From assembly GCA_963752155.1 (NCBI GenBank), contig CAVVXH010000004.1, forward strand, positions 1-64,000: DNA of 64,000 bases, read 5' to 3'. Below the pieces are notes generated by a model. That model searched no databases and was not told the DNA's origin. It saw nothing but the letters and a program-made list of their open reading frames with translations. Source of the stretch: an uncultured Parachlamydiaceae bacterium (GTDB lineage Bacteria; Chlamydiota; Chlamydiia; Chlamydiales; Parachlamydiaceae). Both the position numbers and the translations under genes were made by a program. Within the stretch, counting starts at the first letter, position 1; each line of letters opens with the position of its first letter. This document shows positions 2,112-63,425 of the stretch, piece after piece.

Positions 2112-2700
2112 CAGGTGCAACGATATAGGGGTATGAAGTATAGGAAAAATTAAACACAAAAGCGCAAAGAGCACAAAGAGATCTTAGCTACGATACTTTA
2201 CATGTAAGATCTCTTTGTGCTCTTTGCGCCTTCGTGCCTCCTAAATAACAAGTTCGCGCCTTGCCATTGGTGCCTGACCTGATATTCTGACATTTGCCGA
2301 TGCGATAACATTGCTTCCTAAAGGGCAAATGTCAGAATGTCAGGTCTGGAACCAAGGCTGGAACGTTAGGGACTGTGCAACAATAACTTGCACGATTGGG
2401 CTTTCGCGTTGCCCAATCATACAAGTTATTATTGCACAGTCCCTTACCCCCAAGATTTACGCAACTGAAAAAAGCGTCGTTTTCAATTAATAACAAGATA
2501 CTAAATTCTGAGAGGTAACGTTTAGCCTTGGTTCCAGACCTGACATTCTGACATTTGCCCTCCTGGGAGGCTACGTTTTCATTGTAGGCAAATGTCAGAA
2601 TATCAGGTCAGGCACCAATGGCAAGGCGCTTTAAAAATCTGTTATTTCCCGATAGGGGGCGCCGCAGGCAACTGTCTCGCTTTGTGTTTAATTTTTCTTA
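2112..2700. repeat. Composite palindromic repeat array (F/F', A-left, B MITE, spacer, A-right, G)
   Basis: Near-identical segments at 39450-39870 and 16640-16930; A arms ccattggtgcctgacctgatattctgacatttgcc and inverse. Confidence 0.9.
2369..2443. mobile_element. 75-bp MITE (family B) with TTA target-site duplication
   Basis: TIR GGGACTGTGCAA...TTGCACAGTCCC flanked by TTA/TTA; empty site gaacgTTAcccccaag at 39601-39616. Confidence 0.9.
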
Positions 2701-2763
2701 GTATTCCGCATCAGTCGATTTTGTCTTCCAATCATCTCCATATTGATTTACAAAAAGAAATAT

Positions 2764-5178
2764 ATGGAACACAATCACTTTAAAAACATCGATCTTAAAG
2801 CGATCGAATCACATGACAAAGTCATAGACATATTCGTGCAGGCCTTTAAAGAATCGAATAACAACAAGCAAGCGTGCGCTGATCTACTCCTACAACAACT
2901 TTTCTGGCTGCTATCGTTCGACTTCAAACTTTTTTTAGAAAGCTTACACCTTACTCCAACAGAAACCATACGTTATATTAGCTATCTTCTTTATGCCATC
3001 TATTATCGCGAAATTCCCTTAGCTGCATTGGCAGCATTCGGTAACACTGAGCATATAGAGTACTTTCTTCTTTGCATGACAGCAGAATCTCTTAAACAGA
3101 AAAAAATGAAATCTATTCTCCAAAGATTACCTTTAAATAAACAACTTCGATTAGGTAGCTATTGCGCTCTTTATGTCAGAGAAGGAACCTGGATGATATT
3201 TAATCTACTTGCCCATTTACGTCATCAAGACCTCTCGTGGAATCTTCTCTTCAAACATTTACGGAATAAATACTACGATGCAGCCTACCTTAATTCTTTC
3301 CTCTCTTCTTTCAATCTCCAATCGACTCCCACCTTAAAGTCTATCGTCGAAGCTTTGGAAAAGCATGCCGATAGTCAAATTGTAGAAATCGTCAAATTGT
3401 TGCCTAAGCTTATTGATACGATGATTCTATTCATCAAAAATGAACGTAAAATCTTAATTGAAAAGCTTTTCTGCAAATTTTCTCTACAAAACTATTCATT
3501 TGATGAATTAAAAGATTTTTTTCTGATCTTCGGTCTTAAGGGGCATGTTTTAAACGATTCTACAATCAATAACCCAACGGGTAGTGCTTCACTTGTAAAT
3601 TTACTACAAGCCCTGTTAAATCTCTTCCAAATGACTCCACAGGTCATGACCCCAGATAAACAACAGCAAATTTTATTTATATTAGATCTCTGTCGTCATC
3701 TTTACGCCTTTCATCGGGAATCACCTCAGCCTTATGCTAAAGGACTAAAACACCTCGTCTTTGCTTTACCTACAAGAGGAATAGACCTGCCTGAGCAACC
3801 TTGGTTGACTTCAGTATTAGAGGGATTAAAAGCTATCGAAACCTACCTAAAAAAAAGGAATCCTTCTAAATCTACGATTCAAATGCCTCCAATCGTCATT
3901 TTCGACCAATCCTTAGCAAAAGAGTTTAAAAAAAATGATAAGTACATTAAAGCTGCCGCCCAAGAATATGGGATAGGCATTTTACATTTTTCCAAACTAG
4001 AGACTTTCAAGTTGGCCCAAAAGCTTGGAATCAAATCATGGATAAGAACTTCACGATCAAGTTATTTTGGATATGGGGGAGCTCGAAATTGCGCATTTTT
4101 GCTAGCTCCGGTTATAGCAGCAGCCTATCGTAAAGGCAAATGTACAGTCCAAGAAATATTAATGCTACAAACTAAAGAGCTGAGTGCCCTATACAATAAA
4201 GCCGTTCTAGGTAAACAGGGGCAAGATTTTTCTATCCACATGGGTGAAGACGATGTTGCCATCCCTCCAAGCAATCTATTCTCTGATGTACTTTTTTCAG
4301 CAACGTGGCAAAAACTCTATTTTACTCGTTCGATGGAATGCTCCGGCAGGACGACTCAATCAGTTTATCCTTTTTTAGATCTTAAAAGCATTCTTGAAGC
4401 TCCTAGTACGTGCTTTTTTACGAGCACAAATACTCTTTTTAGAGGGGCGATGAAAGGGATGTTATCAAAGCCGAGATTTTGCCTACCTATTCCTATTGGG
4501 AATGAAGAGCTCCATGTGATCCCTTCACATGAAAGTTTTTTTCACTTTCATCAAGCCAATATCCATCTTGCCGGAACACGTTTTCCTAACAACGAGATCC
4601 CTCAATCTCCTTTGGATGGAATTTTAACAGTTTTAAAAGAACAATTGCCCTATAGATTCCACATCACACTTTCAGCCATTCTGACAGATTCTCAAAATCA
4701 ATTTTCTCGACGCATATACCCCTGGAATGACCTCGTCGTACGCGCATTTGGGAAAATTCAAACTTTAAATGATCTGTGGAATTTTGCATCCTCTTTTGAT
4801 GTCATCCAAGAACTCAAGCAACGTTTTTGGGGCAATGTCGAAGCTTTGTTTGATGATAAAAATTCAGAGATCATTCTAAGAAAATGTTTAAAAGCTTTAA
4901 TTGAAGTCAACTTATCTGTGGAGGCACCAGCAGAGCTCAAACAATTTTACGAAACTATGCAAGAGGAGGCTTACTTCTTCGAAGAATTTGCTCGGGCATT
5001 ATTATTTCATCGTGCATCTGGTTCTTTACATTTCATTCAACTTGCCAAGGTAGATGTCGAAAGTCAGTTTAAGAAAAAGGTTATAACATCTGTTTTGACA
5101 AAAGGCTTCCTGGCACTTATAGAAGCCATAGAAAATTTTGGGCAGGTTCCTTTGATTCTCAAGAATTTCTCTTGCTAA
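2764..5178 (+). CDS. Large hypothetical protein with putative GT-A glycosyltransferase-like domain
   Basis: Long ORF, ATG at 2764; motifs FALPTRG, IVIFDQS, GYGGARN, MGEDDV. Confidence 0.7.
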   Translation: MEHNHFKNIDLKAIESHDKVIDIFVQAFKESNNNKQACADLLLQQLFWLLSFDFKLFLESLHLTPTETIRYISYLLYAIYYREIPLAALAAFGNTEHIEYFLLCMTAESLKQKKMKSILQRLPLNKQLRLGSYCALYVREGTWMIFNLLAHLRHQDLSWNLLFKHLRNKYYDAAYLNSFLSSFNLQSTPTLKSIVEALEKHADSQIVEIVKLLPKLIDTMILFIKNERKILIEKLFCKFSLQNYSFDELKDFFLIFGLKGHVLNDSTINNPTGSASLVNLLQALLNLFQMTPQVMTPDKQQQILFILDLCRHLYAFHRESPQPYAKGLKHLVFALPTRGIDLPEQPWLTSVLEGLKAIETYLKKRNPSKSTIQMPPIVIFDQSLAKEFKKNDKYIKAAAQEYGIGILHFSKLETFKLAQKLGIKSWIRTSRSSYFGYGGARNCAFLLAPVIAAAYRKGKCTVQEILMLQTKELSALYNKAVLGKQGQDFSIHMGEDDVAIPPSNLFSDVLFSATWQKLYFTRSMECSGRTTQSVYPFLDLKSILEAPSTCFFTSTNTLFRGAMKGMLSKPRFCLPIPIGNEELHVIPSHESFFHFHQANIHLAGTRFPNNEIPQSPLDGILTVLKEQLPYRFHITLSAILTDSQNQFSRRIYPWNDLVVRAFGKIQTLNDLWNFASSFDVIQELKQRFWGNVEALFDDKNSEIILRKCLKALIEVNLSVEAPAELKQFYETMQEEAYFFEEFARALLFHRASGSLHFIQLAKVDVESQFKKKVITSVLTKGFLALIEAIENFGQVPLILKNFSC

Positions 5179-5230
5179 TAAATAAGTTTAAATACATTAT
5201 TATGTTTAAAATTATTCCAAAAGGATCTCT

Positions 5231-61619: not shown

Positions 61620-61890
61620 AGGAGTATTGCAAGGTTTTAAAATTTAGAGGGAAATTTTCCAATTTTGGATTTTTTCCATTTTTCTTTGAGTAATAAAGAT
61701 TAATTATCTTATTTTTCTTCTTTCTCTTAGGCTGTGGACTTGTCGATAAGTGTGCATTTAGTGGAGTAAAAATGGATGTTCATCTTGTGTATATAAGGTG
61801 TTTAGAAAGTGACAGTTATCAACACTCAATCACTTGTGAACAATTCCATGAACGAAAAAAATGAAGTTATGATTGAGTTATGAACGAATC
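61620..61890. other. Candidate replication origin (oriC)
   Basis: DnaA-box-like 9-mers at 61733, 61741, 61786, 61816, 61835; AT-rich flank; apparent skew switch. Confidence 0.6.
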
Positions 61891-63092
61891 CTTCTCTCAC
61901 TATTTAAAACGCAACACCCCACAAACACCACGATTGTTACTTCTTTGATCAACGAGGAAAATGTCCAGGCAACCTAAAGTTTGATAGCCCCTTGGATCAT
62001 TGTAAGTTCCAGCAATGACACTATTGTTATCAATTTCTTCTTGACATAGTGTAAAGATCATGTCTCCAAGTAGATCTTTTCTTATTTTAGTCTGCGCAAA
62101 AATAGAAATTACTGCTTCTAGGGTACTCGGTAAAGTATAATGAATGTTGTTTTCTTCAGAAATTTGGTTTCATCAATGAGATTTTTTTTCATAAGCACCC
62201 AGTATGTTTTTGTATTGGAGGCATCCACCATCGAATTTGGAATAAGAATATTTGGAAATGCATTAAAATTACCTTTCTTGAATAAAGTGAAATAAGACCC
62301 TAATAAATTAAAGGGAAATAAATTAAATGAGCGATGTTGAGTTTCTTTTAATGAGAAATTTTTGGGAATAAGTGTCAGTACATAGTTATCGCGCATTTTT
62401 TTAGTAGGTTCCACTGGGCACGGTCTATTTAAGATCTCAATGATGTTATAAGGAATTGGCGGTTCAATTCCCATGTTCAGGTTAAAATGTTTATGCCATT
62501 CTTTCTTGCCAAAAATGATTTCTTCTGCAGCAGCTTTTCTTTGCTCGTTAATGTTAAAAGTCATTCTATAACAACCCTTACTAACTTGAGAAAAGGATTG
62601 ATGGCCTTTAAAATCTAAGTAGGAAGCAATTTTCGAAAACACATCGGAATTTAAAAAATCGGATTTTATTTCTGGTGGATATAAAGTGATCGAATTAATG
62701 TACTTAAATCTGCGATAAGCTACAGAGATAATCCCTGTAAACATCCATGCTCCCAATAGATAAGCATGATAGGCTGAAAAAATGTAGCAAGCAATATTAA
62801 CAATAATGAACGCTAATGTCATTCGAGCAATAGAATCGATGTATTTTATAAGAAAAGAATTTTTTTCAATTTTGTAATGAATAATCTTTGGCATACAATA
62901 TATTATCCAAGCGGCATTTCCTGCACTAGTAATTGCAATTTCAGGGTCAAACACTGAAGCTATTAAACCGATGAATATTCCTGAGGCAATAGTACCAATG
63001 ATTTTGTTTCGATCTTCATTACTGAGAGGTTCATTATAAAAAGAATACAACGTTTGAACACATTGATTCCCTAGATTTACTGTATTTTCCAT
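61878..63092 (-). pseudogene. F-box protein with N-terminal TM helices, frameshifted near 62160
   Basis: LNSDVFSKIASYLD...SQVSK F-box; alternative frame continues YTLPSTLEAVISI...FTLCQE. Confidence 0.65.
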
Positions 63093-63175
63093 AATTTCCA
63101 AATAAATAATATTTATCACACATTGAATGTTAGTTTCTTCACTTTACTATAATACGAATTTATTGTATAGTCAAA

Positions 63176-63425
63176 ACCTCTACGTGAAATCGTAACAATT
63201 AAAAAATTGCGCAAATTGTAGCTCATCATTCCGATGTTGAGTGTAGCCACGTAGCCTCCAAGTGGTCTAAACCCCTGCGTGAAGTCATTATAACCAGAAA
63301 ATTGCGCAAATTTCTTAGCTGATGCGATTTCACGGAGTGGTTTAGACTATTTATATGTGACTTCTAATTAAGTATGCCCCCCTGATTATAACATCCAAGA
63401 ACTTTTGGAGTGCTGTGGCTCTGAG
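63176..63425. repeat. C-C' plus D arm, truncated by IS
   Basis: Matches 28250-28400 and 36103-36175. Confidence 0.88.

Follow-up and report, generated by a model that had tools for sequence, protein, structure and literature searches.

Nested palindromic repeats in a Parachlamydiaceae genome: probable stacks of unrelated hairpin-forming elements rather than a gene-capture system

The window analysed here, the first 64,000 nucleotides of contig CAVVXH010000004.1 from an uncultured Parachlamydiaceae bacterium (C4:1-64000 in our numbering), contains arrays of palindromic repeats that lie inside one another in mirror image, some of which stand on both sides of a gene. The initial annotation took the inverted arms for platforms that capture and delete accessory genes as cargo, and the locus raises the question of whether the bracketed genes are such cassettes or came to lie there in other ways. 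The nested mirror-image repeats were real, and they likely represent several unrelated kinds of selfish DNA stacked together. We consider it probable that at least five unrelated hairpin-forming systems are stacked at these sites, having likely inserted into one another before likely being copied as composites, most of the brackets around genes being due to chance neighbours, to the repeat's own partner gene, to insertion of an insertion sequence (IS) or to local duplication.

The repeats were counted in the 3.13 Mb assembly of the genome under study (G000), which is 80% complete, with about one fifth of the markers missing and frameshifts apparent. Self-BLAST and profile searches gave 17 module sites in the window, close to the 18 or so intergenic sites annotated before, and 460 genome-wide, covering 2.6% of the genome. 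The density in the window was about 2-fold the genome mean (17 versus ~9.4 sites per 64 kb), and the self-BLAST depth across it reached 383. Distinct genome-wide matches numbered 215 for family A (201 of them full length), 64 for B, 96 for C, whose core was tagged GTAG, 92 for D, 152 for E, 82 for F, 138 for G, 33 for H and 24 for J. Two hairpins (44978-45075 and 54960-55022) were single-copy and were set aside from the repeats. Two peculiarities of the assembly were also seen. aroC, metK, secA, pnp and many other conserved genes were split into at least two open reading frames (ORFs) in G000, suggesting indel errors in the assembly, and a mirror-image duplication of ~26 kb, with paired genes and repeat sites, was found at C7 ~650-26600 and is possibly an assembly artefact.

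Two genes for Y1 HUH transposases, each without a paralog, were found in the genome. The gene for the 341 amino acid protein (C10:596682-597707) was flanked on both sides by A hairpins, arranged as direct-oriented doublets, and the gene for the 201 amino acid protein (C11:40743-41348) had five E copies upstream and none downstream. Both proteins had the HUH and Y---NP motifs, given as the class 2 signature in PMC6006769; the shorter one scored 98 bits against the model NF047646, above the cut-off of 80, and the longer one, which had a C-terminal extension of ~200 amino acids with no Pfam family match for a helix-turn-helix (HTH) domain, scored 72 bits, below it. The A copy at 23061..23535 in the window was identical at 93 of 101 positions to a copy flanking the 341 amino acid transposase gene, and the E copy at 53361..53638 matched one beside the 201 amino acid transposase gene at 67 of 71. 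A-like hairpins also flanked two of the three long Y1 genes examined in relatives (loci L156 and L158, not L157; genomes G012 and G029). Family D had the E core, although neither transposase gene was flanked by D; the contexts of the shared core were E-type in 59 cases, D-type in 37 and other in 20. Inverted doublets were formed by A in 67 cases (among the 201 full A hairpins) and by E in 25. The likeness to repetitive extragenic palindromic (REP) sequences, their inverted doublets (REPINs) and REP-associated tyrosine transposases (RAYTs), which had been drawn with no HUH transposase in view, proved stronger than could be seen from the window: no such gene was present in the window itself, and two were present elsewhere in the genome. 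In these features A, E and D match REPIN-RAYT systems, and by analogy with the biology of those systems the A doublets and the E/D doublets would be mobilised by the two HUH tyrosine transposases, whose single-copy genes lie beside A and E respectively.

Family F had a different partner. An intact gene of the GxxExxY family (TIGR04256), which encodes a predicted PD-(D/E)XK nuclease, was localised at C6:157307-157687 with F hairpins on either side; its closest relatives were in Parachlamydia and other Chlamydiae records. We collected 80 related loci from many phyla, 75 of them with enough flank, and inverted arms lay within 150 nt of the gene in 50 of the 75, whereas none was found in 64 control windows placed 600 nt further out. 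About 45 F hairpins had no gene; their standard loop was 43-54 nt, their ends were ragged, and no target duplication was seen when they were inspected by eye. The terminal motif of G was identical to that of F and, among the matches listed, G was mostly joined to A. F and its extension G are arms of the GxxExxY gene and would spread as gene-less copies, the encoded protein presumably acting as a nuclease. A second intact GxxExxY gene was found at C10:276531-277360 (L013); the long inverted arrays on its two sides were made of another 9-nt unit. A search of titles and the opening part of abstracts, with subscription journals and supplements outside it, found nothing on arms or repeats of GxxExxY genes.

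This partnership changes the reading of the brackets formed by F. The GxxExxY remnant at 39312-39472, annotated as cargo of an F...F' pair, matched the 5' region of the GxxExxY copy at C4:110.6 kb (95%, 104 nt) and the 3' end of the copy at C5:188 kb (97%, 69 nt). It therefore joins the two ends of the gene and is F's own deleted partner, not cargo. Two of the four supposed F cargos were F's own partner gene or a deletion derivative of it. The bracket at 2162-2234, described as almost empty, had an 18-nt loop that was the end of a C element, and not the usual F loop of ~43-54 nt. A more extended proposal, which we hold only tentatively, is that the GxxExxY nuclease drives a widespread selfish unit, REP-like without an HUH transposase, of which F/G is the non-autonomous version, that F/G fused in G000 with a REPIN driven by a RAYT to give a hybrid replicator with more than 100 copies, and that sister pairs occasionally duplicate or move the gene between them.

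Families B and H showed terminal inverted repeats with target duplications of fixed length, which marks both as miniature inverted-repeat transposable elements (MITEs). A 3-bp duplication was present at 26 of 31 paired B copies, and 15 of the 31, in three lengths, were at one identical site of the A unit. An 8-bp duplication was found in 19 of 32 H copies (19 of the 24 with both ends found). As MITEs, B and H would move by cut and paste; the transposase families PF13359 and PF12762, the only ones searched for as their parents in the 80% complete assembly, were not found. An IS1182 element (C4:63423-65117) was inserted at the apex of a D hairpin, with terminal inverted repeats matching at 14 of 16 positions and a 3-bp TCT duplication, and its transposase gene was broken into at least two pieces, two of which were matched by NF033551, each below the whole-protein cut-off. 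By its sequence the element has inserted into a palindrome, as some ISs are known to do at REPs (Tobes and Pareja 2006, PMC1525189).

The nestings A[B]A', A[H]A', C[D D']C', F[C C'] and D[IS1182] reported earlier were all found in place. In the one described as F[C C']F' at 28193-28495, the left F arm was intact and the right arm was unmatched. The features of the window were as follows.

2155..2690: composite of an F hairpin with a C remnant as loop, an A doublet (A, spacer, A') with B, then G
2369..2443: 75-bp B MITE interrupting the A doublet; target duplication of 3 bp (TTA)
8683..8856: F arm of the left side, a C hairpin that is shortened, the initial portion of C' with the 27-bp repeat (8781-8807), then G
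8904..10403, plus strand: AAA ATPase gene (Pfam ATPase_2)
10405..10596: second 27-bp copy (10410-10436), the remainder of C', the F arm of the right side and part of G
13674..13782: part of a J repeat and half a B copy, close to where aroA starts
16508..17038: truncated composite of D, D loop, half an A doublet, G and C'
23061..23535: A...A' pair enclosing H
23216..23358: 143-bp H MITE; target duplication of 8 bp; 9-nt units form a hairpin inside it
28193..28478: left F arm and C-C' hairpin between the ompA-like and pom genes
30887..31043: J repeat
35959..36328: C, then D-D' hairpin, between the housekeeping genes dxr and dienelactone hydrolase
39312..39472, minus strand: internally deleted GxxExxY gene between F-type arms
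39502..39851: A doublet in which the B site is unoccupied, then G
42805..42887: single E arm
45129..45258: D-D' hairpin, loop deleted
51209..51281, plus strand: tRNA-Arg(TCT)
51305..51660: C[D D']C' composite
51790..53383, minus strand: AbiEii/AbiEi type IV toxin-antitoxin pair, arrays of different families on either side
53361..53638: E-E' doublet
55029..55103: B copy downstream of khpA
57040..57141: degenerate B copy
63193..63422: C, C' fragment, D arm to the hairpin apex
63423..64000, plus strand: start of the IS1182 element at the D apex, running to C4:65117

A Protochlamydia outer-membrane protein domain is also encoded in the window; taken with the closest relatives of the GxxExxY gene, it suggests that the host is an environmental chlamydia. 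At 40014-41446, an ORF with an Ntox50 domain is followed by two 100 amino acid paralogs (74% identical), an arrangement like that of a polymorphic toxin whose immunity gene has been duplicated.

At least two repeat systems were present together at 141 of 460 sites, more than placement by chance would give (a mean of 66 and a maximum of 91 when the 634 units were placed at random in intergenic space, which is a rough null). The same fused junctions recurred many times (A|G 102, F|A 51 and F|C 10, counted as 40-mers with up to four mismatches), and recurrence 51 to 102 times suggests that the composites were likely copied whole. In the simplest reading, which we think likely, each kind of insertion took place on one or a few occasions, and whole stacks were copied afterwards; a strong preference for certain targets could account for part of the composite pattern. 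Hairpin apexes and arms would be preferred or selectively safe targets for insertion and also occasional crossover points. Another possibility is that gene conversion, together with template switching from one hairpin to another, both forms the composites and spreads them, the transposases and the nuclease playing no role. Many junctions and deletions ended in microhomologies, F had ragged ends, and REPs are known junction hot spots (PMC3161906), all of which would agree with such a process. Gene conversion needs a resident copy, however, and leaves unexplained both the insertions into unique gaps that are empty in the two congeners (G001 and G002) and the cognate flanking of partner genes across genomes, so we judge it very improbable.

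If the arms were dedicated, integron-like recombination sites that take up and drop accessory genes, as first proposed, such genes should be commoner beside them. We sampled 20 blocks of 20 kb picked by position. They contained 324 ORFs of 100 amino acids or more, and we labelled the first 300 by hand, using Pfam matches (E of 1e-9 or lower) to the first 330 residues and taking genes within 300 bp of a site as adjacent. Outside the window, selfish or defence genes were not enriched beside sites (4 of 18, versus 25 of 149 housekeeping or metabolic genes; p=0.52), and 24 of 115 ORFs with no hit, 1 of 6 eukaryote-like repeat proteins and none of 12 prophage genes were adjacent; gene ends facing a non-repeat gap of at least 80 nt gave 5 of 27 versus 28 of 149. 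Inside the window, the statement that nearly every selfish gene abuts an array was borne out for 6 of 8 genes, which favours the proposal, but 14 of 32 housekeeping genes did so too (p=0.24). Multi-copy gene families showed no excess beside sites (147 of 549 versus 488 of 1990, p=0.29). A[G]...[G]A pairs also enclosed rpsO-pnp and other housekeeping genes. Because the sites were no commoner beside accessory than beside housekeeping genes, they are probably not a gene-capture system. The ATPase_2 family had 34 members in the genome, many of them broken; 13 were adjacent to a site, against a baseline of 25% (p=0.06), and only 3 had sites on both sides. In a prophage-like region at C2 ~67000-118000, none of the 12 labelled phage genes adjoined a repeat site.

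Comparison with relatives pointed the same way. We compared 1.11 Mb of G001 (~30% of it), a different species with roughly 70-75% DNA identity. Among 183 adjacent ortholog pairs, 98 were conserved, 68 were broken and 17 had extra ORFs in G000. Eight of the conserved pairs held a site, and in four of them the gap in G000 was longer by about the length of the repeat and was gene-free. The gap between the ompA-like and pom genes, for instance, measured 428 nt in G000 versus 70 nt in G001 in the ortholog comparison; in the site annotation it was ~430 bp with the repeat versus ~130-180 bp without it in G001 and G002. Many of the 17 pairs with extra ORFs looked like split ORFs, four contained sites, and none was bracketed by one family. 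The congener thus showed insertions of repeats alone and no cargo between arms. Synteny breaks were not enriched at sites (25 of 136 ends versus 6 of 34 conserved gaps of at least 60 nt), and many of those in G001 may be paralog mismatches because only ~30% of it was compared. Among sequencing runs, one of DNA was listed, with a share of 0.07, and none of RNA; over positions 1-20000 of the window its reads gave only short, shallow contigs and no joints. The role of the arms as platforms that capture and delete cargo thus failed in both respects, accessory enrichment and cargo in relatives. G001 and G002 bear their own, different hairpin repeats beside the same genes (L165:3570-3720 and L167:2860-3500).

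The comparison also bears on whether the host has kept the hairpins as terminators, mRNA stabilisers or nucleoid-binding sites, the nesting being a by-product. Every module folded as a long stem, only 5 of 460 sites were fully inside long ORFs, and convergent gaps were favoured (24% held sites, versus 12% of tandem gaps), as such signals would be. Purifying selection predicts the intergenic bias equally well, though, and positions were not conserved in the congener, where none of 12 A hairpins adjoining an ortholog had an A at the same place in G000. The families were also largely confined to G000 and its genus; the first array of the window was matched in 7 of 31 genomes searched, mostly the two congeners. 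We find this explanation quite improbable.

Several observations weigh against a simple stack of selfish elements. The AAA ATPase gene at 8904..10403 did lie inside a split F[C C']F' element, as annotated, and the two halves join into a continuous element. On both sides of the gene there was a 27-bp stretch of C' (8781-8807 and 10410-10436), as direct repeats identical at 26 of 27 positions; the variant bearing it had only 7 copies genome-wide, so that the probability of chance proximity was ~0.002, and two more copies flanked a gene in a tandem paralog array. A second ATPase paralog was found between two E doublets. A BLAST scan for split elements was too noisy for gene cargo, and only its clean 3-4 bp overlaps were used. 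Rare 18-mers were shared by 12 of 178 gene-separated site pairs 0.5-4 kb apart, versus 3.0 expected, the second half of the C7 mirror-image region being excluded from these counts; no excess was seen beyond 4 kb. The tRNA-Arg gene abuts khpA in G001, whereas in G000 they are 3.8 kb apart, with AbiE, an oxidoreductase and three arrays of different families between them. aroC and aroB, adjacent in G001, were split by a 5.7-kb insert (C10:62449-68181) that contained two ATPase genes, a Band 7 gene and an HTH gene; one of its ends carried an A doublet. The enrichment sample held only 18 selfish genes and omitted ORFs shorter than 100 amino acids, where many toxin-antitoxin genes fall. The 80% complete assembly yielded no partner gene for any of B, C, H and J. 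Finally, all mobility was deduced from sequence signatures.

The ATPase locus, the second paralog and the excess of sister pairs are also what an integron-like platform would produce. The 12 sister pairs, though, comprised one transposase locus, one IS1182 insertion, three tandem paralogs and seven other genes, the second ATPase among them. Together with the lack of enrichment outside the window and of inserts bracketed by one family, this makes the platform improbable, and as a general rule for G000 cassette capture is probably closed. The ATPase locus, the sister excess and the inserts fit repeats acting as occasional crossover points in ~5% of close pairs, as with the REPs of E. coli, which were at 22 of 90 junctions (PMC3161906); crossover at apexes and arms would explain both the ATPase between its 27-bp repeats and the ~9 excess pairs. 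What survives of the cassette idea is occasional local recombination or duplication at repeats, a minority effect within the stacks of selfish elements that we favour. A family of three paralogs (71-77% identical; window 62118-63119 and C4:86073-88668) had a C fragment upstream of each member, which suggests duplication together with the repeat.

Most of this is known biology (REPINs, MITEs and an IS in a palindrome) at unusual density, and we found no description of such repeats in this phylum in the literature listing. If our interpretation is true, the GxxExxY proteins, a large family without a known role, would be nucleases that recognise a sequence or a hairpin and belong with repeats of their own, as in the recently described Ssn family, and G000 supplies a cognate gene-arm pair. 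The cross-family composites would, if confirmed, be evidence that selfish hairpins of unrelated origin can join together and be replicated as a single unit.

Among known systems, integron gene cassettes also have imperfect palindromes beside toxin-antitoxin genes and genes of unknown function. Here, in contrast, the genes did not form an array in which every single gene is closed by the same type of site, accessory genes were not enriched, and the window sites had no integrase beside them; nothing relevant was found in the literature on a palindrome-cargo system. ISs that target REPs (PMC1525189) and bacterial MITEs resemble IS1182, B and H, which lie inside or between palindromic arms with target duplications, but IS1182 is not among the ISs that the abstract of that paper names, and for B and H the search found no parent transposase. 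TIRYT/TIRtrons (Di Nocera 2013, PMC3733652), equivalent to TnpA-REP subclass 2.1 (Quentin 2018, PMC6006769), resemble the 341 amino acid Y1 protein in its long C-terminal extension and in flanking repeats that are also a dispersed family. As far as these sources describe them, A differs in having ~200 copies, no Pfam C-terminal HTH and flanks of direct-oriented doublets, not one terminal inverted pair. The closest precedent for F and G is the Ssn GIY-YIG nucleases with their NTS/SRM repeats (Chenal 2025, PMC11893778), which likewise associate a small non-transposase nuclease gene with a many-copy dispersed palindrome; the partner here is a predicted GxxExxY PD-(D/E)XK protein (TIGR04256), and the arms are made of 9-nt units. 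REPIN-RAYT systems, as presented in Bertels and Rainey (2011, PMC3116915), share with A, E and D the dispersed intergenic inverted doublets, a distinct repeat cluster for each single-copy Y1 transposase and several flavours per genome. They differ from the repeats described here, whose arms are double hairpins of ~100 nt or units of 80 nt, which are heavily nested with elements unrelated to them, whose cross-family composites recur up to 102 times, and whose host is a chlamydia-like bacterium.

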